Source: an uncultured delta proteobacterium
GTDB lineage: Bacteria > Desulfobacterota > Desulfobacteria > Desulfobacterales > JAFDCJ01
DNA: 64,000 bases
NCBI GenBank assembly: GCA_963769935.1
Contig: CAVYNY010000016.1
Location: 32,001-96,000, forward strand
Direction of reading: 5' to 3'
The position numbers and the translations under genes were made by a program. Below, in pieces: positions 25,171 through 45,965 of the stretch. A model generated the notes under the pieces. The model did no database searches, was not told the DNA's origin, and was given only the letters and a program-made list of their open reading frames with translations. Within the stretch, counting starts at the first letter, position 1; each line of letters opens with the position of its first letter.

Positions 25171-25927
25171 TCAAAGCCTGGCGATCATCGATTTAATCTC
25201 GGTCTTGCACGACGAAGTGACGTCAAAAGGGGATATACCGTTTAAATCCGCCTCGATCAAGGCGTCGTCATACGGCAGAAATCCGATAAATTCAAAGTCG
25301 GACAGATGTTTTTGGAGAAACTCCTGGTCTTTGGGGACCTCGTATTTTGTTGCCGACAACGGCGATGGTCTCCAGGCCGATTTCTTTTGCCAGCTGCCGG
25401 ATATGCTCAGCTGTGTCGATACTGCGCCTTCCCGGTTCGACCACGACGATAAGCTTATCAACTGACTTGGCGGTGGCCCGCCCGAGGTGTTCGATACCGG
25501 CTTCCATGTCCATTACCACGACTTCATCCCTGGCCAGCACCACATGCATCACCAGCGCCCGCAACAGGGCACTTTCCGGGCAGATGCACCCTGCCCCGCC
25601 CTTTTTGACGCCGCCCAGGCGCATGAGTTTGATGTTTTCAAAGGTCGCCGACAGAGCATCCGGCAGATCATCCACCCTGGGATTAAGTTTGAAAAAGCCG
25701 CCGATACTGCCGGGCTGCGCCCCGGTGCGCTCAAAAACAAGTTCTTTCATCTCTGAGATGGGAACGATGCTTTCGGCATTATCGATGCCCAGTCCCGCGG
25801 CCAGATTCGCGTCCGGATCCGCATCGATGGCCAGCACCCGTTTTCCCATTTGATTGAATGTGCGAATCAATAAGGAGGCAAAGGTTGTTTTGCCCACCCC
25901 TCCCTTGCCGCTGACTGCAAGCTTCAT
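25171..25927 (-). CDS. cooC: CO dehydrogenase nickel-insertion ATPase CooC (+1 frameshift at 25333-25336)
   Basis: GKGGVGKT, DADPD, GCIC, DMEAGIEHLGR; after GNKIRGP it continues in another frame as KDQEFL...LPYD. Confidence 0.85.
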
Positions 25928-26248: not shown

Positions 26249-26686
26249 TCAGGGATGTCGCATCCATCTGGCCGGACCTACGGTGGTGGAAGGCGTTCGA
26301 CTCAAAAAGACGGTTTTGCCACTTCCTCTAAAGCCCAAGGCTCCATCTGTTTCAACTAGATCGCCATCCCATGCATATGCTTTGCCGAGATTCGGGTAGG
26401 TACCGGTGGGGTCGTCTTTCATTTTTCCCCAGACAGCACTGTCCCCGCTGTCCGGGTCATAGCCGGATACGGAACATTTGACGGTCGCCCACAGCAGACC
26501 TTCTCTGCCGTTGAGTTCGGCGATGGCCGCATCGATGGCCCTTTCATCTGCATTGGCCTCCAGGCTAATGTAGCGCGGAACGGCTATGGCAGCTAAAATG
26601 CTGAGCAGTATTATCACTGCGAGAAGTTCTACGAGAGTAAATCCCTGCGCCTGTAGGCCGCAAAATAATCGCTCATCGGGTCGCAC
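26249..26686 (-). CDS. Type IV pilin-like protein (second pilin)
   Basis: QG/FTLVELLAVIILLSILAAIAVPRY prepilin site; GTG start inferred behind GGGGT. Confidence 0.85.
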   Translation of the reverse strand: MRPDERLFCGLQAQGFTLVELLAVIILLSILAAIAVPRYISLEANADERAIDAAIAELNGREGLLWATVKCSVSGYDPDSGDSAVWGKMKDDPTGTYPNLGKAYAWDGDLVETDGALGFRGSGKTVFLSRTPSTTVGPARWMRHP

Positions 26687-26724: not shown

Positions 26725-27123
26725 CTATTTTCGAACCCAGACGCCGGGCTTTTTTGTAGTGGACTCTGTACGGGACATGGTCACCGGAGTGCCGCTTTTG
26801 AATGACAATTGACCGCCGCCAACGCCAAGAGCAGGAGAGGCAGACCATACATAACTAGCGCCAAGATCCTTGTCGATCTTACCAAACAGTGTAGCATCAT
26901 CTGTATAACCGGTGGTGGATATTTTGGTATCGGCCCACGTCAGGCTTTCGCGGCCGTTTAGTTCCGCCACCGCGGCATCAAGGGCTCTCATTTTGGCGTT
27001 GGTTTCCAGGTCGATATAGCGCGGTACGGCCACAGCGGCCAGGATGCCTAGAATGATCAAAACGGCGATGATCTCCACCAGGGTAAAACCTTCTTGATTA
27101 CGTAACGGATTTTGATTTTTCAT
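26725..27123 (-). CDS. Probable major type IV pilin (MshA/PilA-like)
   Basis: NQEG/FTLVEIIAVLIILGILAAVAVPRY; strong GGAGG RBS; own sigma54 promoter. Confidence 0.9.
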   Translation of the reverse strand: MKNQNPLRNQEGFTLVEIIAVLIILGILAAVAVPRYIDLETNAKMRALDAAVAELNGRESLTWADTKISTTGYTDDATLFGKIDKDLGASYVWSASPALGVGGGQLSFKSGTPVTMSRTESTTKKPGVWVRK

Positions 27124-27214: not shown

Positions 27215-27230
27215 AGCACAAATGATGCCA
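27215..27230 (-). promoter_or_regulatory. sigma54 promoter of the pilin genes
   Basis: Minus strand TGGCATCATTTGTGCT = GG-N10-GC, ~90 bp upstream of the pilin ATG. Confidence 0.75.
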
Positions 27231-27375
27231 ACCGGGTATTCTATTTAGCGCTGAAATCATAATTTCATTATTATTTTAAATAGTTAAAATTTTAAAAAGT
27301 TATTGGATTTTTTATTGTTCGTAAAGAGACAACCGGTAATCTACAAAATATGATAGTTTGGGGGCCTGGAATTCA

Positions 27376-28711
27376 TCAAATTTCGGTGTTTTTTAACCCC
27401 TTGACATCAATGTTGTACTTTTTTATACGATGCCACAGGCTGCGCTGATTTATTCCCAGGAGTTCTGTAGCCCTTACCTGAACCCCGCCGGTTTTTCGCA
27501 AGGCTTCGATGATCATGCTTTTTTCAATTTCCCGCAGTCGTTCGTCCAGAGCGAGATTGACCGGAATCTTGAAATCCGAATTGTTTGGATTGTTAAATAA
27601 GCCGGTAATTTTAGCCGGAAGCTGGGCAGGCTCGATGTATCCGTTTTCGGCGATTACAGAGGCGCTCTCAATCGTATTCTGCAATTCCCGAATGTTTCCC
27701 GGCCACGAGAACGCTACCAGCATTTGAAGGGCCACCGATGAAATTTCAACTTTTTTGGGGGCATTCTGCAGGAAATAGTCTACCAGCAGGGGGATATCTT
27801 CTTTTCGCTCCCGCAAGGGCGGAAGGTGAAGGGTAAAGACATTCAACCGGTAAAATAAATCCTCGCGAAAGGTGGCCTTCCTGAACCATCCTTTCAAGGT
27901 TCTTATTCGTTGAAGCAATGATGCGAACATCCACCCTAATGGTGCGGCTGCCGCCGACCCGGTAAAATTCCTGTTCCTGAAGTACCCGCAGGATTTTTGC
28001 CTGCAGATTTAAGGGCATGTCGCCGATTTCATCGAGAAAAATGGTTCCGCCATCGGCCATATCGAATTTGCCGGGCTTAAATTTGGCGGCCCCGGTAAAC
28101 GCACCTTTTTCGTGTCCGAACAATTCACTTTCCAGCAACTCGGCCGGAATGGCGGCGCAATTAAGTTTAATAAACGGTTTATCATTGCGTTCGCTGTTCT
28201 CATGGATACTGGTGGCGATCAGCTCTTTGCCGGTGCCGCTTTCGCCCAGAATGAGAACAGTGGAATCGGTCGGGGATACTTTACGGATCAAGCTTAACAA
28301 CCCTCGCATGGTCAGACTTTCCCCGATGATATCCGGAAAAAAATTACGGGCATCCATGCGGCTGAGCACCGATGTGACCTGATCGAAAACACTGGAAAAC
28401 TGCTGAATTCTATCGACCGACCAGTCTTTTTTCCTGGTTTTGGGCGATCCGGAAAAGTGGGCGAATTTACTGGCTTTTTCGACAAAATCCTCGACCGGTT
28501 TGAGTATGAGGCGCACCATCGCAAAACCGGCCGCATAAGCAAAAAAGCTGATGACAATGATAAACCAGAAGACCGGTCGTGCCGGCTCCACGCCGTGCAG
28601 CATACCATATTTGGTCAGCCGGAAGGAGACAATGGCGGCAAATATCGTAAAACCCGTGAAGATAAAAGGAATGATGATATACAGACTTATGTAGAAGCGC
28701 GAGTGTTTCAT
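27376..28711 (-). CDS. Membrane-anchored sigma54 enhancer-binding protein (+1 frameshift near 27875)
   Basis: Two TM helices, then [45 protein letters not shown] and a Fis-type HTH in the second frame. Confidence 0.88.
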
Positions 28712-28715
28712 GACC

Positions 28716-29936
28716 TTACTTCGCCATCAGGGTCAAATCCCACATCGGCAGAAAAATCGCGGTGGCAAAAAAACCGACCACGGCCGCCAGTCCAATGGTC
28801 AACAGCGGTCCGATGGCCTCGGATAGTTTTTTCATGGCATACTCAACTTCGGTATCGTAGTGTTTGGCCACATCCTTCATCAATTCCTCAAGGTTGCCGG
28901 ATTCTTCACCGATAGCCACCATGTTGATGAGCATGGGAGTAAAATATTTGGCCGAACTCAAAGGTCCCGCAATTCCATGGCCTTCAGCCAGACGGTCTCT
29001 GATCCCCGTCAATTCACGGGAAATAGCAGAATTGCCGATGGTTTCGGATAAAATATCCATCACCTGCAGAATATCTACTCCGCTGGCCTGTAAAATGGAA
29101 AATATGCTGGCAAAGCGGGATATGGCGCTTTTTATGAACAAAGGCCCCACGATAGGCAGCTTCATCATTGCCGTATAAAATACGTACTTGCCGTTCTCGG
29201 TCCGCAGGTAATAGTATAAAGCCACCCCGCCGACCACCAAAATACTCATAAGAATGTACCAGTATTGGACAATGGCGGTGTACAACAGCATGCAGATCTG
29301 AGTCGGCAACGGAAGTTTCAGGCCGGCGCTTTTGAAAATGTCCACAAAACGGGGAATGACTCCCGTCAGCAGCACAAAAAAGGCAACAAACAGAAAGCAA
29401 ACCACGATAATCGGATACATCAGGGCGGCTTTAATGTCGGATTTTACCCGGTGTTCGTGTTCGATGATGTAAGTCAGGCGATCGAGCACCTCGTTCAGAG
29501 CACCGCTGGTTTCTCCGGCTTTGAGCATGTTGCAATACAGCGGTGAGAAGGCTTTGGGGTGTTTTCGAAAGGCTTCATGCAAACTGGAGCCTTCCTTGAT
29601 GTCCCGGTGGATGGTGCCCAGAATCCTGCGCAGTTTCGGATGCTCGGTTTGCTCTTCCAAAACCTTCAACAGAGACAACATCGGCACGCCGGCACGAATC
29701 AAGGTATTGAACTGCTTGGTAAAAAGTATCAATTCCGGGGCTTTAATCGGGGAAAGAGAATCAAGGAGGCTGCCCACTTGAGCACCGGATACCGCAGAGC
29801 GTTCTTCCTTGACCCGGGTCGGAATATATCCCTGGGAGGCCAGCAAGCTGCTGGCTTTCTCGGCAGATTCGGCCTCGACTTCACCGGTTGTGGTTGTACC
29901 GTCCTCGGTGATGGCGCGGTAGCTGAATTTTGGCAT
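28716..29936 (-). CDS. pilC: Type IV pilus platform protein (PilC/MshG/GspF family)
   Basis: F.Y.A N terminus, GETSG.L, ALMYP, LPLPT, GEESG.L, IFLPMW. Confidence 0.92.
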
Positions 29937-29965: not shown

Positions 29966-30350
29966 AGGTTTCAGGTTTCGGGTGTCAGCCCAACCGCCGG
30001 CCAAAACAACGGCCGATCTGATCGAAAAAAAACATATTGGTTCACCGCAGAGCCCGCAGCCTCCGGCCCATAGGGCCTACGCCCCGGTGGGAGAACGCCG
30101 AGAAAGAAAAGTTAAATTAATCTCTGCGCTCTCTGCGCTCTCAGCGGTGAGACACTTCGTAAAAATGGCATCGAATTTAAGGAAGTTTCATATGAGGTGT
30201 CAGTGTTCAAGTTTCGGACTCACAGCGCTAAACTACACTCGAATTATATGTGTGAAACTTTGTAATTTCGGGGGCTTTTAATTTGTGTCCGATTTCCAAA
30301 ATTCGATATATCGGCCTTTGCCCGGCAACGCTGAGCTGAACCTGAAACCT
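29966..30350. mobile_element. MITE-like non-coding element with nested repeats
   Basis: Terminal inverted repeats AGGTTTCAGG/CCTGAAACCT; 5' part shared with 56546-56704. Confidence 0.55.
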
Positions 30351-30425
30351 ATATCCAGCAAAAAAGACACCAATGAACGGATATAAGGCGACCGGCCCAA
30401 AAGTGTTGATATGCCTCTACCCGGG

Positions 30426-32132
30426 CTATACCATCACCGCCGATGCCGCCTCTTCCAGGGATGTTATCCCCAGAATCACTTTTTCGGCCGCATTGTCTTT
30501 CAGGGTTGCAAACTCTCTGACTTCTTTGACCTCACGGGTAATCTCATGCGCGGAGACCCGTTTGAGGATCAGATCCTGCACGAGATCGTCAATGACCAGC
30601 ACTTCATAGATCCCGGTCCGGCCTTTGTATCCGGTATGCATACAACTGAAGCATCCCTTGCCCTGCTGAAAATTGGCATTTTCCACGGTATCCAATCCCC
30701 AGAATTTCAGCGCTTCCGTTGGCGGCTGGTAGCTGGTTTTGCAACTCGGACAAACGGTGCGGACCAGCCGCTGGGCAAAGGATACGATCATCACCGAAGC
30801 CACCAGGAAGGGTTCGATCCCCATGTCCATAAAACGTGTGATCGCTCCGGGAGAGTCATTGGTGTGCAGGGTGCTCAGCACCCGGTGTCCGGTCAAGGCG
30901 GCCTGAACTGCAATGTTGGCTGTTTCCGAATCACGTATTTCTCCAACCATGATCACATCCGGATCCTGGCGCAAAATCGAGCGCAGCCCGCTGGCGAAAG
31001 TCATGCCGGCCTTGCGGTTGAGCTGAACCTGGCGAATTTTATCAATCCGATATTCCACCGGGTCCTCCACCGTTATGATGTTGATGTCCGGCTGGTTGAT
31101 TTTCTTCAATATGGAATACAGGCTGGTACTCTTGCCGCTGCCGGTGGGGCCGGTGCTGAGAATCATGCCATAGGGCCTGGCGATCATCGACTCAAGTTTC
31201 AGGCGGTCTTTTTCATTCATACCCAGCCGTTCCAGCGAATAGATGCTGTTGCTGGTATCCAGCAGGCGCAGCACCATGTTTTCACCGTAGATGGAAGGAA
31301 TCGTGGAGGCCCGGATATTAATATCCTTGTTTTTCATTTTAACAGTGAAGCGCCCATCCTGTGGGATTCTGGACACGGCGATATCCATATTGGCCAGTAT
31401 TTTAAGCCGGGAGATAATCGGCAAAAACATTGATTTTGGCGGAGCCGGTACTTCGTGAAGTCGACCGTCCACCCGAAAGCGAACCTGCACCGATTCTTTT
31501 TCAGGGCTGACATGGATATCGCTGGCGCCTTCCCGAACACCCTGCGATAAAATGGAATTGACCAGCCGGACAACCGGTGCTTCTTCGGCCATGCCTTGCA
31601 AGGAACTGACTTCTACATCTTCGGTGGTTGAAGTTTTCTCCTCGGCGGTTTTATCGATTTCCATCTCTTCCATGTCTTCCAGCACACCGCCGATCCCCGC
31701 ATAGCTGCCGTAGAGGCTGTTGAGCAATTGATTCAATTGCTGCTCGGTGCAGATGATGGCTTCGACTTCGCAATTGGTATACACCTCAATGGCATCCAGT
31801 GCATTGATATCCAAAGGGTCCATCATGGCGATTGTCAGCAGAAGTCCGCTTTTATGGAGCGGCGCTGCCTGATATTTGTGGGCAATGTCTGCCGGAAGCA
31901 GGTTGGCAAGATCCACATCGATGGTGTATTTATCCGGCCGGTATTTCTCCAGCCGCAGCTGATTCGAGACCAGATCGACGATCTGACTTTCACTGACAAT
32001 TCCTTCGCGAACCAAAAACTGGCCGAGTTTCAAATTGCTCTTCTTTTGAAAGGGCAGCGCCTCTTCCAACTGCTTTTGCGTCAGCAGGCCGCCCTCTACT
32101 AATATTTCACCTAATTTCTTTCTCGCTCTCAA
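30426..32132 (-). CDS. pilB: Pilus assembly ATPase (PilB/MshE) with MshEN-type N terminus
   Basis: KLGEILVEGGLL..QLEEAL..Q and KLGQFLVREGIV repeats; GPTGSGKST, LRQDPD, TGH, four-Cys motif. Confidence 0.93.
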   Translation of the reverse strand: MRARKKLGEILVEGGLLTQKQLEEALPFQKKSNLKLGQFLVREGIVSESQIVDLVSNQLRLEKYRPDKYTIDVDLANLLPADIAHKYQAAPLHKSGLLLTIAMMDPLDINALDAIEVYTNCEVEAIICTEQQLNQLLNSLYGSYAGIGGVLEDMEEMEIDKTAEEKTSTTEDVEVSSLQGMAEEAPVVRLVNSILSQGVREGASDIHVSPEKESVQVRFRVDGRLHEVPAPPKSMFLPIISRLKILANMDIAVSRIPQDGRFTVKMKNKDINIRASTIPSIYGENMVLRLLDTSNSIYSLERLGMNEKDRLKLESMIARPYGMILSTGPTGSGKSTSLYSILKKINQPDINIITVEDPVEYRIDKIRQVQLNRKAGMTFASGLRSILRQDPDVIMVGEIRDSETANIAVQAALTGHRVLSTLHTNDSPGAITRFMDMGIEPFLVASVMIVSFAQRLVRTVCPSCKTSYQPPTEALKFWGLDTVENANFQQGKGCFSCMHTGYKGRTGIYEVLVIDDLVQDLILKRVSAHEITREVKEVREFATLKDNAAEKVILGITSLEEAASAVMV

Positions 32133-32157: not shown

Positions 32158-33969
32158 TTAGTTTTTCAGGTTCAAATAAGGATTGGCAAAATAAACAGTC
32201 CCCTTATCCCACCATGACATTATCGCTGGACTGGATGCCATGCCGGCGGGGATTTTTTGCAGCTCATTGCGCGCGGTCTGTTCATCCTTGAAGGCCTTGT
32301 TTAAGATTAACGCAAACCGGGTGCCGTCCGAAGGACTCCAGTACGGTATCAAACGAACGGCCGGCGAGCTGTCGGAAAGATTGCGCAGGAGGCTATAGGC
32401 AGCTTCCAGTGAATCTTTTTCGTCAACTTTGACCCACCAGACGGGGGTTTCCGGTGGCTTGACCCTGACAGGGATGGCTGGCAGGGATATAATCTGGCCG
32501 ACTTCAACATGGTCGGGATCTTCAATAGCGGGATTGGCCATGATGAATGATTTGAAATACCGAGAACTATACCCGCCATAGACGCACTGGATTATCCGCG
32601 ACAGGGTCTCATTGCGCTGGAGGGCCAGTTGTCCCAGTATCGCCGCATAGGAGGGCTGGGAAACTGCTACGGCACGAGCCTCGGAAAACGTTTTACCCGC
32701 AGGTGCCGACTCATGTGCCGGGTCCTCCATCTGTCTAGGCTTCCCCGTCTCAGGCAACTGCGCCACCGTTAACGGGTCTTGGCCGGTTGCCGGATCGCTG
32801 TTATTTTCCACCGGCGTGATATTTTTCACACTTTGTCCATTGAATGAATCGGCTGCCTGAGCCGGCTCTTTTTGCTCAAGTACGGGCTCAGGGTCCGGTT
32901 CGCTGCGGTTCAGGTCGGGAAAATCCGAAGCAATGATGTGGGCGCTGTAAGTCTGGGGCTTTGGTTCAGGAACCCGCCTACTGATTTCCGGATTGCGTTT
33001 TGGGGAGAATATGCTTATCAAGCTCTGAATACCGCGAGATTGCAGAGCTCGGTATCGATCCGACGGCTGTAAGATTAACAGGGTCAATGCAATCACCCCG
33101 GCCACGGCGGCCGCTGTTCGGATGCGCCTTTTTTTTTGGGCTTCTTCCGGGAACACCCTGCGGGCACAGGTGCTGACCAGGAAATATCCGACTTTGGACC
33201 GATTTTGAATGATCATCGACAAAATGCTCTGGTGACAGAGGTTGATGATTTTTCGAGGATATCCGCCGGTAAGGCGATATATGACCCACAACGCCTGATA
33301 GGTGAACAGATGCAGTTTTTGGGCAGAATTGCTGGATTTTTCCAGCCGATATTTTATCATCAGCCGCGTATCGCGGAAATTCAATGGTCTTAACTGGTGG
33401 TACAAATTGATGCGGTCGGCAAAATTGGGATATTTGCGGATGGTGCTCTCAAACTCTTTCTGGGCAAAAATGACAATTTGCAATAATTTAAATTCATTAG
33501 TCTCATAATTTAGAAATTCACGCAAAATTTCCAGGCAAAACGCCGGTATTTTTTGCCCTTCATCAATAATGAGCACGATGGTTTTGTTCTCATCCACGCC
33601 TTTGCTGAATAGATGCTGCTTAATCTGTTCCTTTGCCTGCCAGTCATGGCTTCCCGCCGGCGGTTTTTTACCGGTAAACAATTCGGTTACAGTGGCCAGG
33701 AATTCGGTAGCGTTGAGAAAATACGGATCCAGAATAAGATGGGTCTCAACCTCATCCTTCTGGGAAAAGCGGCGGATGAGCTGACGACACATGGTGGTTT
33801 TACCGGTTCCGACATCCCCGATGATCACGTTCAGTCCCCGACGAAGCAGCAAAGACAGCTCTAATTTTTGCAGGCAGTCCAGATGCTGGCGGGAATGAAA
33901 AAAAAATTCGGGATCCGGCGAATTGGAAAACGGCTCCCTGCTTAAATTAAGTATGCTGAAATAATCCAT
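32158..33969 (-). CDS. ExeA/MshM-family AAA ATPase with TM and LysM-like domain
   Basis: EPFSNSPDP.FFF, GDVGTGKT, IIDEGQ, GGYPR.IN; later ETLSRI...ANPAIEDPDHVEVGQII. Confidence 0.88.
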   Translation of the reverse strand: MDYFSILNLSREPFSNSPDPEFFFHSRQHLDCLQKLELSLLLRRGLNVIIGDVGTGKTTMCRQLIRRFSQKDEVETHLILDPYFLNATEFLATVTELFTGKKPPAGSHDWQAKEQIKQHLFSKGVDENKTIVLIIDEGQKIPAFCLEILREFLNYETNEFKLLQIVIFAQKEFESTIRKYPNFADRINLYHQLRPLNFRDTRLMIKYRLEKSSNSAQKLHLFTYQALWVIYRLTGGYPRKIINLCHQSILSMIIQNRSKVGYFLVSTCARRVFPEEAQKKRRIRTAAAVAGVIALTLLILQPSDRYRALQSRGIQSLISIFSPKRNPEISRRVPEPKPQTYSAHIIASDFPDLNRSEPDPEPVLEQKEPAQAADSFNGQSVKNITPVENNSDPATGQDPLTVAQLPETGKPRQMEDPAHESAPAGKTFSEARAVAVSQPSYAAILGQLALQRNETLSRIIQCVYGGYSSRYFKSFIMANPAIEDPDHVEVGQIISLPAIPVRVKPPETPVWWVKVDEKDSLEAAYSLLRNLSDSSPAVRLIPYWSPSDGTRFALILNKAFKDEQTARNELQKIPAGMASSPAIMSWWDKGTVYFANPYLNLKN

Positions 33970-34069: not shown

Positions 34070-35598
34070 CTAGCCGCCGGAACCTTTCGGCTTCAGGATA
34101 TGCGGCGTGATAAAAATGAGCAGTTCCTCCATTTGATCGGAGCTGCTTTTACGTTTAAACAGATACCCCAGACCCGGGACATCCTCCAGAAATGGTGTTC
34201 CCGTGTCATTGCGGCTCGACGTATCAATGCTCAAACCGCCGATGACGATGGTCTGTCCGTTATTCTGGAGGACGTTGGTCTCGGCATTTTTGGTGATAAT
34301 GGTCGGGTTGCCAAGGACGGTTCTGGAAAAATCCGGCTGGTCCTTTTTTACCTTTATGACCATTTTAAGGGTCTCGCTGTCAATTACATGCGGTGTTACA
34401 TCCAATCTGAGCACCGCTTTCTTATACTCGACCTTTACCTCGCCGTCTTCTACCGACTGATAGGGAACATCCTGACCACTCTCGATAAAAGCATTCTGGT
34501 TGTCCAGGGTGGTGATCGAAGGACTCGACAGGATGTGGAGTTTGCCCTGATCCTGCAAAGCCGAAAGCTGGGCCGATAGAATGTATTCCCCTACCTTGGC
34601 GTAGATCAGCCCCAGGGTCGTGGGATCAAACCCGCTCAGCGACGAGGCCGGCAGGTTAACCACCGATCCTGAAGTCACATCTATCGGCCCGTCGAGTGGG
34701 ATGGTCTGCGTTCCGGTTTGCTGCCCGGTAAAAATCGCCTGCTTATCGCCGCTTTTCCCGGCATAAATGCCGCCCCACTGGATACCCAGCTCACGGGCAA
34801 CATCCTTGTTGGCCTCAACAATGTAGCGCTTCGATCAGCACCTGGGGGGTGGGACGGTCCAGCCTTTCAATTACCGCCAGGATGTTGTCCATATCACTTT
34901 TAATTGCCTGAATAATCAATGCGTTGGAGTGCTCATCCACCAGGATGGATCCGATCGGTTTGCCGCTCTTGTCAACCGCGACAAATTTATTCAAGATTGT
35001 CTTTGAGTTTGGTGGGCTCCATGTATTTAACTGCCACAATCCGGGTCAACGGCGACTGGGAAAGGCTCAATTCTCTGCTGCGGGCCTTGCTTCGAATATC
35101 GGCATCCAGATCCTCGGAAGTCATAATGCGGATAATGTCGCCTTCCCAGGCGTAGGTCAGCCCATGGGTCTTCAAAATACCTAAAAACACCTGATCCCAG
35201 GGCGCCTGGTTAATATTGATATCGACTTTTCCGGTAACTTTCTCGTTGAGAATGATATTCTGATCAGCAGCCTTGGCAAGCGCGCGCAACAGCACGGACA
35301 CATCAATACTGTTCATCTTCAGGCTTATTTTGCGCGTGGGAAGCGGTTTTTCGACTTCAGGTTTAACCTTTTCCACCATCTCTTTGGGGCCTATCTCAAA
35401 GGGCGCTTCATTAGCCGGAGGAGGTTTGACCGCAGAATGCCCCTTTGATTCTTCTGCCTTAACCCGCCACTGCTCAAAAAACGGGTCTTGGACATCTTTT
35501 AGTTCATGATTCTGAGAACAGCCGTTGATCCAGGCCGCCGTCATGCAAAGACACAGCATTCCCGTAAAAAATGTAAATACACGCATAAATATAGCCAT
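34070..35598 (-). CDS. pilQ: Secretin (PilQ/MshL position), split by two +1 frameshifts (34989, 34826)
   Basis: Lipoprotein-like N terminus (NGC), PWDQ, VDEHSNALI, PQVLIEA-YIVE..ELGIQW, LDVTPH, ELLIFITP.IL across three frames. Confidence 0.88.
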
Positions 35599-35610
35599 CG
35601 GTTATCAATC

Positions 35611-36105
35611 CTATTCGATTTCTTCCATTGGAAGGATCAAAGTTTTATTCTTATTATCGGGTGCAGCGACCACGACATGAGAAGGACTAATACTCTGCAC
35701 AACCAGTCCGGCCCGCTCCAATATGTCACCGACCTCATATTCCATCCCATTGATGATTGCCAGCCGTTTATTTCCCATTTCCAGAAATCCGGTGTATAAC
35801 ATCTTGCTGTTCAATGCCAGCGGTTGCCTTTGCGCTTCTTCATCCCGGGCCAATTTGGGTCGGATCTGAATAAAGGGGTCCTGTTTCCATTCAGCCTGGG
35901 CTTTCTGCAATATATAGGTCTGCTCTTTTGACAGGCCGGTCTTAGTTTGATCGGCAACTTTGGTAACAAACGAGTTGAGTGTTTCCAGTTCCTTATGGCC
36001 ACTTGAAACTGACACCGCGCGCGGTGCAGAAAAAAACACGGTGTATACACCATAAACTACGGCCAAGACCATAAGGCCAACAATTACTTTTTCTCTGTTA
36101 GTCAT
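35611..36105 (-). CDS. GspB/MshK-like (PilP-position) pilus protein
   Basis: N-terminal TM, DPF, LAIING..YEVGD, I.P..VV; lies between PilO and secretin. Confidence 0.65.
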   Translation of the reverse strand: MTNREKVIVGLMVLAVVYGVYTVFFSAPRAVSVSSGHKELETLNSFVTKVADQTKTGLSKEQTYILQKAQAEWKQDPFIQIRPKLARDEEAQRQPLALNSKMLYTGFLEMGNKRLAIINGMEYEVGDILERAGLVVQSISPSHVVVAAPDNKNKTLILPMEEIE

Positions 36106-36230
36106 GATTCGAGTTGTGAGCAGCTCTTTCCGGTTTGCAGGTTACGAGTTACGTGATGCGCGTTGCGAGTCTCGGGCCAAAGTTCAGCCTTTTGGTTCCT
36201 ATCATCTGTCCTCTGTCTTCTGTCATCCAT

Positions 36231-36764
36231 TCATTTCTGCGCCATCTGGATTCTCAAATTATATTCCCTGGTCCCCTCAATGGCGCGGATTTTGATTTCT
36301 TCGATTTGCTCCAGCGCAGAGATAGCCGATAGATCCAACAAAAAATCACGAAACTGCATAAAATTGCCCGTGAGGCTGATTCGCATCAGCATATTCTCGG
36401 AGTTTTTCATCAGCGCGGCGACATCGGTGCTGATATCCTTCATCTCAAGGTTGTGACGTTTCGCTATTTCCCGCAGGAGATCCGTAATCCCAGTGATACC
36501 GCCGCCTGCCGGTTTGAACTTTGGAGCCGCCGGCAGCTCGGTCGGCTGTTCTTGCTTGGCTCGCTTTAAAAGGCTTTCGAAAACCGGCCGCAATATCCGC
36601 TGTTCTTCTATCCGATCATTTACTTTTTGAATGTCTCGATCCAATTCGGCAGAAGTTTTCTGGCCGGGGATGATTATCATAAAAATAAATGCAATGAGTC
36701 CAGCACCGCATATAACGCTGTAAATAATACTCTGGGTCGGCAGGATTGATAGAATCTTTTTCAT
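36231..36764 (-). CDS. PilO/MshJ-like alignment protein
   Basis: Single TM, coiled coil, LTGNF..FRDFL motif. Confidence 0.75.
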   Translation of the reverse strand: MKKILSILPTQSIIYSVICGAGLIAFIFMIIIPGQKTSAELDRDIQKVNDRIEEQRILRPVFESLLKRAKQEQPTELPAAPKFKPAGGGITGITDLLREIAKRHNLEMKDISTDVAALMKNSENMLMRISLTGNFMQFRDFLLDLSAISALEQIEEIKIRAIEGTREYNLRIQMAQK

Positions 36765-36775
36765 AAGAATACAGG

Positions 36776-38656
36776 TTATAATAGTTTCAATCGAGCGGTG
36801 AAATTCAGCACCTCCTGATCTTCGTAGCGCTCGAAGGATTTTTTACTTATCGTTGGTTTATCGAACATCGGAGAATTATTTAGCGCCATCAGATAGCTGG
36901 CCAGGGTCGATTCCAGGTTGAGCCGGTCTCCCCTGACGATGCCGCTTAAAACCAGATCCCGATTTTTCTCAGCCTTCTTCCCTTCCGGACCGTTATCCAG
37001 TTGGGCCGCTATGTCGAGCAAGCGCACATTTGCAGGCGTTAGATCCGAAATTTCACTGATAACGGCCACCCCGATGTATTTCTTGCCAATTACCAGGACC
37101 TCCTTATTTTTGGCACGGATTTCATCAACGAGTTTCAATATGAGGCCTTGGTCAACCCGCAGGGTAATAGTTTCAAGCTGATGCTGTAATTGCGCTTGCT
37201 GATATTCTTTCTCCTTAACGGTGCCGGCCTGGAAGTATGACACCCCAACGCAGATTGACATCAACAGGAGAAAGCCGGCAAAAACAGCTCGGTTGATCCT
37301 CTGGCTCCTAACCGCCTTTTGCTTGTCTTTGTAGGTATATAAAAAATTAGGGGTCAGCGTATTGCCGGCGAGAGCCATGCCCATCGCCGGTACATACGAG
37401 CTTTGCTCAGAGACGACTTCAGGGCTAGGCGTCAGGGAAATAAAATTTTCACTGTCCGCAAAAGGATTTAATATTTCCGTAGGAATGCCAAGTTCTTCAC
37501 CGATATAGTCAATGATTCGCTGATGGGGATTTACCCCGCTGGATATATAAATTTTCCCTACCCGGGCATTTTCATAGTTCAACGAAAAATGTCTCAGAGT
37601 TCTTTCCACCTGCCGCACCAGTCGCTCCAGGGCAGGCAAAATCATCTTAAATATTTTATCTTCCTTAAGCAGGCGCTGCCTTTCGTCCATGGCTGATGGT
37701 GAGCTATCATGGATGACACCGAAAAAAAGCTGGTGGGCATGATCCAGTTCAAATTTCAGTTTCTTTTTAATGGCCCGGATTCTTGCGGTATCTTTGGTAG
37801 GCGACTTGGCGATGGAAAGCTCAAACAAATTGCCTTCGATTTCGGTGCGCAGCGCCTCAATCATGGTTTTGACGCCGGCTTTGATGCCGCGGGAAAGCAT
37901 GAGATTTCCTTCAGAAAAAATATCGATACGCGACCAGTCCCGGCCGATGTATAAACTTGACACATGGATTTCGTCAGTAGCGATCCGTCCCGATCTCAGA
38001 AGGGTTTGAAAGGCAAAAGGTACGATTGATATACCCGTGAGGGGAAAACCGGCTTTGTTAAAAAGATCTCTGAGGTCTCTTATCTGCTCCTGAGGGGCAG
38101 TGTAGGCCATGATGTCGATTTTTGTTTTATTGCCGTCCTCGACTTCACCCAGCAATTCAAAGTCAAACAGATTGTCTTTCTCACTAAAAGAAGATAATTT
38201 TTGATACGACCAGTATGCAGAATTGGGGATTTGTTTTTGACTGACCTTTGGTATACGAAGCTGACGTGTTTCCACTTTGGCTGAAGAAATGGTGCACCAG
38301 ATTTCAACGTTCTTTGAATTAGCGCAAAAGTTTGCCAGGACCGGTCTTAAAAATTGGTGAAACTGGGGACTTTCCCGGGGGATATCAGAGTCAAACGGAA
38401 TCCGAGCGTATTCAAGCATTTCGAATTTTTGATCTGAAATCCGGTGAATTTTAACCATTTTTAAATCATCGTGCCCCAGGTCCACCCCGACCGAAATCGT
38501 CTTTCGAAAGGATACCGGATTATAGATAATACCTTTAAGTCGATGGCCAATAGATTTTTGTGACCTTCGGTCGGCGACCGTGTGCTCGGCTTGGCCGTCG
38601 TCACGTATCAGATCAAGAAGCCTTTGGGTTGATGATATCTCATCACGTTTTGCCAA
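36776..38656 (-). CDS. Fused PilM-PilN (MshI-like) protein
   Basis: VGVDLG actin-like start, KIYISSG, LNPF, GMAL, then NFL, TM and a PilN-like domain (L.P.NV.L, SPMF, F...L); GGAG RBS before TTG. Confidence 0.8.
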   Translation of the reverse strand: MAKRDEISSTQRLLDLIRDDGQAEHTVADRRSQKSIGHRLKGIIYNPVSFRKTISVGVDLGHDDLKMVKIHRISDQKFEMLEYARIPFDSDIPRESPQFHQFLRPVLANFCANSKNVEIWCTISSAKVETRQLRIPKVSQKQIPNSAYWSYQKLSSFSEKDNLFDFELLGEVEDGNKTKIDIMAYTAPQEQIRDLRDLFNKAGFPLTGISIVPFAFQTLLRSGRIATDEIHVSSLYIGRDWSRIDIFSEGNLMLSRGIKAGVKTMIEALRTEIEGNLFELSIAKSPTKDTARIRAIKKKLKFELDHAHQLFFGVIHDSSPSAMDERQRLLKEDKIFKMILPALERLVRQVERTLRHFSLNYENARVGKIYISSGVNPHQRIIDYIGEELGIPTEILNPFADSENFISLTPSPEVVSEQSSYVPAMGMALAGNTLTPNFLYTYKDKQKAVRSQRINRAVFAGFLLLMSICVGVSYFQAGTVKEKEYQQAQLQHQLETITLRVDQGLILKLVDEIRAKNKEVLVIGKKYIGVAVISEISDLTPANVRLLDIAAQLDNGPEGKKAEKNRDLVLSGIVRGDRLNLESTLASYLMALNNSPMFDKPTISKKSFERYEDQEVLNFTARLKLL

Positions 38657-39439: not shown

Positions 39440-40483
39440 ATGGAACCTACAATTATCGGCGTCAGCAAAAATATTCAGAGAATAAGAGAGCTGATCGAAC
39501 AGGTTGCCGATACCGGACTGAATACCGTTGTATATGGAGAAACCGGCGTCGGCAAGGAGTTGGTGGTCCAGAATCTTTATCAAAAATCCGATAGAGTCGG
39601 CAAACCTTTTGTCAAAGTCAACTGTGCAGCCCTGCCGGACACATTGCTGGAAAGTGAGATGTTCGGTTACGAACAAGGTGCCTTTACCGGAGCCGAGCGT
39701 CGCAAGCGAGGCAAATTCGAGCAGGCCAGCGGCGGCCTATTATTTCTGGATGAAATCGGGGATATGTCGCTTCCCTTGCAGTCAAAACTTTTACATGTGC
39801 TGCAAGGCGGCGATTTCAGTCCTCTGGGCTCTGAAAAATCCGTTAAAATGGGAGCCTGGGTAATTGCTGCCACCAACCATGAACTTGAAACAGACATGGT
39901 AAACGGTGACTTCAGAGAAGACCTGTATTATCGGTTGAGCACCATAAAGATTCATATCGAGCCTCTTCGCAGCCGTCCCGAAGACATCCCGCTTCTCATC
40001 GACCATTATGTCAAAACCTATACCGCTCAGTTTGACGGTAAACGGCTTTTGACTCCCAGCCCCAAAGCCATCGAGAAACTATCCGCCTACCATTGGCCCG
40101 GCAATGTGCGCGAGCTGCAAAATGTGTTAAAGCGTCTTATGATCCTGGGCAATGGTGAAGACAGCCTGGACGATATGCTCATCGGCCCTCCGGCCAAGCC
40201 CCGGGCAGCCGGTTTGCCGCCATCGGCCGATCAGCCGCCGTCCCCAATGGATTTTTTGGGTTTTGACATTAATAAACCGCCTGATCTTTCGTCATTATCT
40301 TTGAAAAAAATAAAGAAAAAGGCAATGGACCATGTCGAAAAGGAAGTCATTGCCTATGTCCTCGAAAAAACGGGGTGGAATCGCAGCAAGGCTACCAAGG
40401 TGTTGAACATCAGCTATAAAACCTTGCTGTACAAAATTAGAGATCTGGGAATAGAGCCACCGGAAGGTCCCGGGGGAGAATAG
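39440..40483 (+). CDS. sigma54 activator lacking an N-terminal regulatory domain
   Basis: Starts directly at IIGVS; GETGVGKE, GAFTGA, FREDLYYRL, WPGNVREL, HTH. Confidence 0.92.
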   Translation: MEPTIIGVSKNIQRIRELIEQVADTGLNTVVYGETGVGKELVVQNLYQKSDRVGKPFVKVNCAALPDTLLESEMFGYEQGAFTGAERRKRGKFEQASGGLLFLDEIGDMSLPLQSKLLHVLQGGDFSPLGSEKSVKMGAWVIAATNHELETDMVNGDFREDLYYRLSTIKIHIEPLRSRPEDIPLLIDHYVKTYTAQFDGKRLLTPSPKAIEKLSAYHWPGNVRELQNVLKRLMILGNGEDSLDDMLIGPPAKPRAAGLPPSADQPPSPMDFLGFDINKPPDLSSLSLKKIKKKAMDHVEKEVIAYVLEKTGWNRSKATKVLNISYKTLLYKIRDLGIEPPEGPGGE

Positions 40484-44077: not shown

Positions 44078-45965
44078 ATGAGAAAAAAGATCCTTGTGGT
44101 TGATGATGATCGGGTCATGTTAAAATTTATTACCAAGTTGCTCACACGCGAAGGTCACGAGGTGCTTACGGCCGAGGACGGATTTGCCGCCTTGAATCTG
44201 CTGGCCACCTTTTCGCCCGATATAATGTTCTTTGACCTCATCATGCCCAAGATTGACGGGGGCAAGTTGATTAAGATCGTTCGCAGCATGCCGCAGCTAA
44301 AAAGTTGTTATTTGGTCATTATCTCCGCTGCCGTCGCCGAAATCGATTTCGATTTCGAGGAGACCGGCGCCGACTCTTACATTGCCAAAGGTCCGTTCAG
44401 CTCGATGGCCGAACACATCAAGGCCGCTATCGAAGTATCTGATGCACCACCGGATAAGGACGAGTCAAAACCCATTCGGGGGCTGGAAAGCGTTTATGCC
44501 CGCCAATTAACCAAGGAGCTGCTTTCACGCAATCGGCACCTTGAAACCATTTTAGAAAGCATGGCGGAGGGAATTTCTAGAAGTTTATTCGGATAAAATC
44601 GTCTATGCCAATGGTGTTGCCATTTCTGCCCTGGGTCTTCCACTGGAGAAAATATTGGCGGCCTATCCGCCCGATTTGTTCAGCCGGAGCATCGGACAAC
44701 GGCTGGATAAAATACTGCAGTCCAAGTCCGATGAACCAGCTGCCATCGGTGAAAAATTGCCGGTAGACTTAAACGGCAGGCAAATCACCCTTAAAATCCT
44801 GCCGGTAAGAGGAGAGCCGTCCACGGCCATCATCATGCTCACGGATGTGACCGAGCGCAAACAACTGGAAATGCAGCTGCAGCATATTCAGAAGATGGAG
44901 GCGATCGGAACGATTGCCGCCGGGGTGGCCCACAACTTCCGCAACACCCTTACCGAAATTCTGGTAAACAGTCAGCTGATTCAAATGAACTATGAAGACC
45001 AATCCGGCCTGCATAGTGTGGCTGATCGAATCAACACCTCCGTGAGAAGGGGAGCCAGGCTGGTTGATGGATTGCTCCAGTTTTCCCGCAAACAGATCAA
45101 AGAAGAGTTTAAATTAATCGATCTGGTTCGCGTTATCAATGAGGTTTATCAGATCATCCAAAAATCGTTCGATCAAAAAATTACCATTCAAACCGAACTG
45201 CCGAACCATCTGCCGATCATGGGGGATTCTACCAGCCTTAGCCAAGCCCTGATGAACCTCTGCACGAATGCCCGGGATGCTATGCCGGATGGCGGCAAAC
45301 TAACCTTGAGGGCCGTCCGGGAAGGCAAACGAATCCTGGTGACAATCTCCGATACCGGCCAGGGAATGGATAAGGAATCTGCCGAAAAATGCTTTGATCC
45401 GTTTTTCACGACCAAGCCGATCGGCAAAGGAACCGGTCTGGGACTTTCCACCACTTACGGGATTATCAAAAGCCACGAGGGATTAATCAGCGTCGCATCC
45501 CAGTCCAATCAAGGTACTACATTTAAAATGCATTTTCCGGCGGCAGCAGCTGAAGAACGACGCCCGGCCCATGTCAAGCCGACCATCGTCCGCGGCAACG
45601 GCCAACGGGTGCTGGTAGTGGATGATGAACCCGAGATCCTCAAAGCCATGGAAGGGTTGCTCCAATATCTGGGTTACCAGGCAGACTTTGCTTCAAGCGG
45701 TAAAGAAGGTTTGGAAAAATATCTGCAGCGCAGACCCGATGCGGTTTTGATGGATATTAACATGCCCGAAATGGACGGTGTCGCCTGCATTGAAGCATTA
45801 TTGAATCATGACCCCCACGCCAACATTTCGATAATATCCGGCTATGAGATGGAGGGCATCAACGGCTTGAGCAAACAGACCAAAGATTGCATCAAAGATT
45901 ATCTGGCGAAACCCGTAGGACTGGGCGATTTGAGTGCTTTGCTGGCCAGGATGTTGAAAAATTAG
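44078..45965 (+). CDS. REC-PAS-HisKA-HATPase-REC hybrid kinase (+1 frameshift at 44574-44576)
   Basis: [12 protein letters not shown] continues as [12 protein letters not shown] if one T is removed; AHNFRN, NARDAM, FFTTK, C-terminal REC. Confidence 0.85.

Follow-up and report, generated by a model that had tools for sequence, protein, structure and literature searches.

A predicted membrane-anchored, receiver-less sigma-54 activator behind pilC as candidate regulator of a second, MSHA-like pilus

What controls the pilin genes of the pilus cluster in the window (the whole 64,000-nucleotide stretch of DNA analysed here), and which signal might the regulator read? The initial annotation had pointed to a sigma-54 activator gene between pilC and the pilin genes and had proposed it as a one-protein replacement for PilS/PilR. 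The genes of the cluster are encoded on the minus strand. At its head are PilP/T2SSB-like, PilO-like and long PilM-like genes (35611-38656), followed by the secretin gene (34070-35598), the gene for an ExeA/MshM-like AAA protein (32158-33969), a PilB/MshE-type assembly ATPase (30426-32132) with an MshEN domain and a c-di-GMP-binding motif (NF053729, above cut-off), the PilC/MshG-type platform gene (28716-29936), the activator gene (27376-28711) and two pilin genes. The first of these (26725-27123) is major-pilin-like, has a class III signal peptide and residues E5 and P22 that are invariant in 54 orthologues; the second (26249-26686) probably starts with GTG. A segment of about 385 nucleotides between pilB and pilC (29974-30361) is absent from the contigs of relatives and matched by many unrelated contigs, making it a repeated intergenic element. 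Divergent from the pilM-like gene, a sigma-54 activator without N-terminal sensor is encoded on the plus strand (39440-40483); it has a paralogue in the host genome (C13:162466-163587), and a divergent AAA+ gene is found in five related loci. Rfam families were not found in the window between 24000 and 42000.

The cluster resembles that of the MSHA (MSH) pilus of Vibrio and Shewanella, which likewise combines an MshEN-type ATPase, platform, secretin, MshM/ExeA-like AAA protein and pilins in one locus, and the MSHA gene order is similar to that of the window cluster. Functional equivalents of mshA, mshE and mshG as well as mshL and mshM are present in a comparison made without an MSH-specific profile set (mandatory MSH genes according to the available text of PMC6668835). 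In contrast to MSHA, the secretin is closer to PilQ than to MshL (the MshL model scores it at 101 bits against a cut-off of 250, and the PilQ model scores higher), and a sigma-54 regulator is located inside the locus. ATPase and secretin pass no family cut-off; the c-di-GMP motif does. Judged by its genes, the cluster appears MSHA-like in content, in the sense of functional equivalents rather than of established membership in the MSH pili.

The activator gene starts directly behind pilC, as had been noted, with a gap of 4 nucleotides between the end of pilC at 28716 and the ATG at 28711. Its length of 1,336 nucleotides corresponds to whole codons plus one base, and two frames are used in the open reading frames. 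The apparent frameshift goes back to a superfluous assembly base at 27878, which is missing in the contigs of all four DNA runs and of three of the four RNA-library runs; the fourth has no cover there. These seven public runs come from three studies. The best-matching DNA run may be the source sample, and the two other studies give the same result. Relatives are intact, nearly all of the 120 matches listed having 443 to 446 amino acids. Because the public contigs lack the extra base and the relatives are intact, the frameshift is an assembly error, and a real pseudogene is ruled out on the same grounds. Dropping the one base yields a protein of about 444 amino acids, and the inactivating frameshift that the initial annotation had allowed for is not borne out. 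RNA-library contigs of relatives also span the locus, which indicates neither transcription nor its level. Compared with the locus of an intact relative, three genes are split in the assembly, the secretin, the activator and a CooC-like gene, and the extra bases in the secretin and CooC-like genes are likewise missing from public contigs. Altogether, further single extra bases absent from public contigs lie at 25171-25927, 26051, 26236, 34003, 34826 and 34990, the last two splitting the secretin gene. Further away, a receiver and a kinase open reading frame (44078-45965) resemble the halves of one hybrid kinase and perhaps reflect another assembly frameshift.

The two hydrophobic helices described for the N-terminus were recovered as hydrophobic segments, with Kyte-Doolittle 19-residue means of 2.13 and 2.19 at residues about 10-32 and 47-69 (28616-28684 and 28505-28573, minus strand); their prediction as membrane helices comes from hydropathy and a structural model. 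A short, poorly conserved loop precedes the second helix. In helix 1, 91 of 93 non-redundant relatives have P15, and I17 and G20 are almost as well conserved. Family conservation peaks in two places, the first half of helix 1 and the junction of helix 2 and HAMP, and is lowest in the outer loop and the connector. A conserved charged residue like R24 of PilS does not stand out in either helix of the family profile.

The helices are followed by a divergent HAMP domain (28352-28516, minus strand), a helix-connector-helix unit behind the last membrane helix with a conserved proline (P72 in 92/93) and a DE motif (D100 in 72/93). HHalign comparison of the family profile (93 sequences) with HAMP domains of the host genome gave 95% probability (E 3.9e-8, 59 columns) with the proline and the DE motif aligned; a reversed control gave 0.85%. 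The HAMP-like stretch is thereby supported at the profile level and missed by Pfam prediction, which found no match to HAMP (PF00672), whether in the window protein or among the 17 further members of the family that were scanned. The second HAMP helix continues without a break into the AAA+ domain. For the intact relative P0002, an AlphaFold2 model (pLDDT 88.4) has helices at 10-38, 43-83 and 100-124, the third with low confidence, followed by a standard AAA+ domain, whose fold matches structures of FleQ, NtrX, NtrC1 and ZraR, and an HTH. Fold searches with a monomer model of the N-terminus (pLDDT 71.6, pTM 0.46) revealed nothing at E<=0.001, the matches being generic helical hairpins with Z<=8.5. 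An Atlas search, which serves as a lead only, gave two clusters, a Thermodesulfobacteriota one at 0.91 and a HAMP one at 0.81.

The AAA+ core (27682-28246, minus strand) was identified with Pfam and by its motifs, which are all intact: Walker A (28246-28223), the GAFTGA loop (28132-28088), Walker B (28042-28025), the arginine finger (27870-27844) and sensor II (27705-27682). Pfam detects Sigma54_activat (E 2e-66), an AAA lid and HTH_8 (E 3e-13) in the window protein; receiver, HisKA and HATPase domains were found by Pfam neither there nor in P0002. This agrees with the earlier reading of an AAA+ domain with intact GAFTGA and an HTH but no receiver. HTH profile and alignment place a family-specific recognition segment at 27427-27459. 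With its AAA+ motifs, a C-terminal Fis-type HTH, a -24/-12 promoter with upstream palindrome, and rpoN in the host genome (an open reading frame with RpoN box at C22:558360-559823), the protein has the attributes of a sigma-54 enhancer-binding protein. A membrane region, predicted by hydropathy and model, and a DNA-binding domain on one chain also place it within the definition of transmembrane transcription regulators given by Demey et al.

The protein belongs to a family: of 613 candidates, 582 match its residues 1-130 at E<=0.001; among 50%-identity representatives there were 118 matches, at least one of them spurious. Judged by record titles and names, carriers are Desulfobacterales and other Desulfobacterota, including the cultured Desulfonema magnum, Desulfobaculum bizertense and Desulfonauticus submarinus. 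In a sample of 401 genomes of the phylum, the N-terminal profile matches 17, 13 of them strongly, and the distribution is therefore patchy. The host genome has a single copy. A set of 80 loci contained 76 one-component genes and four hybrids. By every available computational test the activator is real, conserved and functional, and it represents a new architecture within a known class, the sigma-54 activators.

Synteny was surveyed among homologues, as had been proposed. PilC is encoded directly upstream in all 74 one-component loci of the 80-locus set with enough flanking sequence and in 11/11 loci from the 401-genome sample (85/85), and a same-strand pilin just downstream in 60/63 and 7/10 (67/73); because the genomes carrying these loci are related, the counts here and for the palindrome below do not stand for independent trials and overstate independence.

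The sigma-54 promoter of the pilin gene, a GG-N10-GC box (TGGCATCATTTGTGCT, 27215-27230, minus strand), lies 145 nucleotides past the activator stop, where the initial annotation had placed it, and an equivalent is found in the great majority of the pilin-followed orthologous loci. Mostly 110-135 nucleotides upstream of the box the family has a palindrome with the consensus CTACA-N5-TGTAG. In the window the predicted enhancer is TATCA-TATTT-TGTAG (27341-27355, minus strand), with a degenerate left half and three mismatches. Leaving aside loci with less than 200 nucleotides of downstream sequence, 63 of 69 pilin-followed loci have the palindrome with at most two mismatches and 55 with at most one (shuffles: 7% and 0.5%), compared with 1/7 loci without an adjacent pilin at the two-mismatch level. 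The scoring matrix was trained on loci L021-L113. The window site is the best palindrome-promoter pair of the whole host genome (scores 13.7 and 22.6), and none of 3,000 random windows reached a palindrome score of 13; six weaker pairs were found genome-wide, and three of their neighbourhoods were inspected. An IHF-like AT-rich site between enhancer and promoter (27273-27287, minus strand) is a lead only, its relaxed pattern occurring in 23/69 loci.

Six loci with enough flank have no same-strand pilin next to the activator: two have an inverted pilin, two a distant one, and in two it was not found. Palindrome and box accompany both inverted pilin genes (genomes G080 and G269) as well as the distant pilins in the complete chromosome of Desulfonema magnum and in the genome of L087 (scores 18.0/20.0 and 15.6/13.9). 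A related pilin with palindrome was not found in the genomes of L075 and G349, which keep the activator. In pilC-pilin loci without regulator, the palindrome score is below 8 in 10/11. The exception is genome G347 (L131), in which pilC is followed directly by palindrome, sigma-54 box and pilin; the activator was not found in this fragmented assembly of 240 contigs, meaning recent loss, relocation or an assembly gap.

Five orphan paralogues of the window pilins are present in the host genome, among them C10:459953-462211, C10:481941-482360, C10:704789-705286 and C16:259693-260094. Two have sigma-54-like boxes and none the palindrome (scores 2.5 or less), and therefore we do not claim a wider regulon. 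Upstream of one orphan paralogue lies a c-di-GMP-I-GGC riboswitch (C10:704625-704699; L217:326-400; 71.8 bits).

The same genome encodes a canonical PilS/PilR system. A kinase with the six-helix PilS domain (PF25323) is located behind a second pilC (C30:23260-26134), and a PilR-clade regulator at about C3:945-2348 beside a classical pilA at the contig end. This pilA has its own sigma-54 box, and PilT-like genes are also present. In the AAA+ tree PilR forms a clade of its own (support 97-99) that includes the C3 regulator and excludes the one-component family. Loss of the canonical system in the host is thus ruled out. Homology of the window sensor to six-helix PilS was not found: the activator has two helices, no Pfam match to PF25323 and an HHalign probability of 0.35% against PilS. 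Among sampled genomes, six-helix PilS occurs in 13 of the 14 with the one-component form and is listed for none of the 10 with the two-component form described below. Since the host keeps PilS, PilR and pilA, the activator is regarded as the regulator of a second pilus, outside both families; it likely serves the MSHA-like pilus of the window and works like PilS/PilR without being a member, as far as gene content indicates. The family palindrome is absent from the canonical pilA promoter (score -3.3). That promoter (C3:130-945, L219) combines a sigma-54 box with a palindrome of its own, TGACA-N5-TGTCA, which has the ACA-N5-TGT core in common with the family site and differs in the flanks; this difference may insulate the two pilus regulons.

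Two-component counterparts occupy the same slot elsewhere. We surveyed the genes behind pilC in the 48 further genomes of the sample that encode a close PilC: the one-component gene is present in 13, a kinase and a receiver-AAA+-HTH regulator in 10, and neither in 25, the last figure referring to the stretch fetched, which in some cases ends at a contig end. HHalign aligns the N-terminus of these kinases with that of the activator (97.6%, E 3e-12; membrane part alone 94.6%), in contrast to six-helix PilS (0.2-0.35%) and to unrelated TM2-HAMP segments compared with the membrane part (1.3%). Two further kinases match the family N-terminal profile at library-wide E values of 7e-14 and 7e-9. The recognition segment is also common to both forms (ERS[IM]WYR and QRSLWHR), and on the family HTH profile nine slot regulators score 74-85 bits and 33 family members 68-107, compared with 35-50 for six PilR and at most 48 for 55 other activators of the host genome. 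The palindrome is present within 500 nucleotides of the regulator in seven of the 10 two-component loci and before a later pilin in an eighth; of the remaining two, one locus is truncated at a contig end and the other lacks a nearby pilin. In the two-component regulators the receiver linker terminates at an F-x-x-I/V-I/V-G-x-S junction, and the HAMP output helix of the activator terminates there too. AAA+ trees do not join the one-component family with these regulators, and AU tests on a 50-row subset of the 111-row set do not reject such a union (p 0.42), and neither do they reject a union with PilR (p 0.175). Because trees and AU tests are uninformative, the shared origin rests on sensor, HTH, operator and position. 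Likely the family arose from a homologous two-component pair by loss of kinase and receiver, or the same modules were reshuffled. A more distant kinase (L121:8792-11636) has a weakly related membrane hairpin and a PAS domain, and its regulator an HTH with 66 bits on the family profile; pilus genes were not found in the 18 kb fetched.

The idea of a PilS/PilR replacement therefore stands in part: two-component counterparts sit in exactly the same slot in 10 genomes, but a replacement of the canonical pair in the cell is not supported. What is upheld, by architecture, synteny and palindrome, is its core: a sigma-54 activator that is anchored in the membrane, lacks a receiver and is linked to pilC and a pilin promoter.

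In the PilS-PilR systems of Pseudomonas, Neisseria (Nps/Npa), Geobacter and Myxococcus, a membrane sensor and a sigma-54 activator act through an upstream site on a GG-N10-GC pilin promoter (available text of PMC6058289 and PMC6528607). The window activator is similar in its position behind pilC and in the predicted combination of a membrane sensor with sigma-54 activation of a pilin gene. It differs in being one polypeptide without kinase or receiver, in having two helices and a HAMP instead of six helices, in its HTH and palindrome, and in coexisting with a true PilS/PilR. The nearest precedent is Rsp of Neisseria gonorrhoeae, a chimera of the membrane part of PilS and the DNA-binding domain of PilR, which likewise links a membrane sensor with the C-terminal portion of a pilin regulator; in the available text, one paper describes it as a repressor and the other sees no apparent role in pilE transcription (PMC10269533; PMC6528607). 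Unlike Rsp as described there, members of the window family have a full AAA+ domain including GAFTGA, and the family is conserved in many lineages. NifA, NorR, DmpR and one-component enhancer-binding proteins of Desulfovibrio and Clostridiales also have sensor, AAA+ and HTH on one chain with intact catalytic motifs. Their sensors are mostly soluble GAF, PAS or V4R domains according to the accessible parts of PMC4641369 and PMC6615313, whereas that of the window activator is a predicted TM-TM-HAMP unit. ToxR, CadC and TcpP are one-component inner-membrane regulators too, and some of these types control pilin or fimbrial genes (Demey et al. 2023; accessible part of PMC10269533); unlike them, the activator has to assemble into an oligomer that hydrolyses ATP and remodels sigma-54 polymerase. 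In the Demey survey 72 entries (0.14%) have HTH_8, and none of the 30 of these 72 rows available has a sigma-54 domain (PMC10269533). A description of the family or of a TM-HAMP-AAA+-HTH activator was not found in the full-text literature as far as available, subscription papers lying outside this scope. With the intact relative, NCBIfam models all stay below their cut-offs.

Taken together, the best explanation, which we find plausible on balance, is that the activator likely binds the palindrome, likely drives the pilin promoter of the second pilus and probably answers unassembled pilin in the membrane. Its parts differ in strength. Sequence data make it very probable that the protein is the dedicated activator of the window pilin promoter, and fairly probable that control by the membrane hairpin runs through HAMP and needs no phosphorylation; the proposal that the intramembrane input is the pilin pool, pilin depletion turning transcription on, is argued by analogy and evenly balanced. 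Several observations speak against the explanation: the mismatch with six-helix PilS and the missing R24-like charge, the promoter elements of G347 with no activator found, the activators in the genomes of L075 and G349 with no palindrome-bearing pilin found, the degenerate left half of the window palindrome, and AAA+ trees that keep the family apart from the two-component regulators. The HTH would bind CTACA-N5-TGTAG and the AAA+ domain would activate sigma-54 polymerase at the pilin promoter, gated by the hairpin through HAMP. In NtrC1 and DctD, an off-state dimer is held by the linker helix after the receiver. The HAMP output helix occupies the position of this linker, ending at the junction where the receiver linker ends, and therefore would assume its role, holding the AAA+ domains as an off-state dimer until a signal change releases them to oligomerise.

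Conservation in helix 1 and at the helix 2/HAMP junction, together with a short and unconserved outer loop, suggests that the input probably lies within the membrane. PilS senses pilin, the basis for which is described in the available text of PMC6058289 and PMC6528607; because the window sensor is unlike six-helix PilS, PilS gives an analogy only, and by this analogy pilin would be the likeliest ligand. In its complete form, in which the two-helix hairpin of a fused descendant of a kinase/regulator pair counts unassembled pilin and signals through HAMP to oligomer assembly and sigma-54 activation without phosphate, this proposal is tentative.

Instead of free pilin, the hairpin might read the assembly machine, either its PilC platform or its c-di-GMP-gated motor PilB/MshE; pilin would then be made only once this machine is built or active. 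The link to pilC (85/85) is tighter than that to pilin (67/73), the cluster ATPase has a c-di-GMP motif, and P0145 and P0153 (953-955 amino acids) carry the TM-HAMP-AAA+ module fused to an MshEN-PilB-type ATPase in place of the HTH. However, both fusions are single-member clusters, and the slot behind pilC is the usual one for pilin regulators, a canonical PilS being found behind the other pilC of this genome and in many sampled loci, and we consider machine sensing unlikely. More doubtful still is a hairpin that reads no pilus component and serves as a passive tether or generic sensor of membrane state (envelope stress, energy or lipid state, proteolytic release). Known membrane-bound regulators respond to many inputs (accessible part of PMC10269533), the module is reused away from pilC in the hybrids (4/80 loci), and the weakly matching L121 kinase has no pilus genes in the 18 kb fetched, but the HTH-bearing members examined with enough flank are all behind pilC, and the conservation of the HAMP makes signal transmission more likely than mere tethering. 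It is highly improbable that the gene is broken or incidental and the pilin promoter is driven by another activator, be it canonical PilR or the one without sensor at 39440-40483: the assembly shows a frameshift, the host genome has at least 57 other activators, PilR included, and G347 has the promoter elements with no activator found, but the extra base is absent from seven runs, the palindrome accompanies the family HTH type in one- and two-component forms alike, and the canonical pilA promoter lacks it.

A HAMP domain wired directly to an AAA+ activator would be a new HAMP output. To our knowledge, enhancer-binding proteins are regarded as soluble, and the role ascribed to HAMP domains is that of inputs to kinases, cyclases and chemoreceptors. 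A membrane-tethered oligomer also raises the question of how the DNA is reached. Sensor, recognition helix and operator are common to the one- and two-component forms, so the proposed origin of a membrane one-component regulator from two-component pairs would be testable by swaps, and both ends of the transition could be compared at the same gene position and operator. The locus moreover supplies a candidate regulator and operator for the unstudied second pilus of sediment sulfate reducers.

Related modules occur in other arrangements. The hybrids (L081, L082, L083, L086 and P0128), of about 745 amino acids, have the order TM-HAMP-AAA+-HisKA-HATPase-receiver and are encoded away from pilC; GAFTGA is degenerate in three of the four hybrid loci, and their AAA+ domain nests inside the family. 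A 597-amino-acid TM-HAMP-like-PAS-AAA+ activator (L120:4562-6355) is encoded upstream of a pilin with sigma-54 box and divergent from pilB. It has another C-terminus and no palindrome and is possibly an independent membrane one-component activator.
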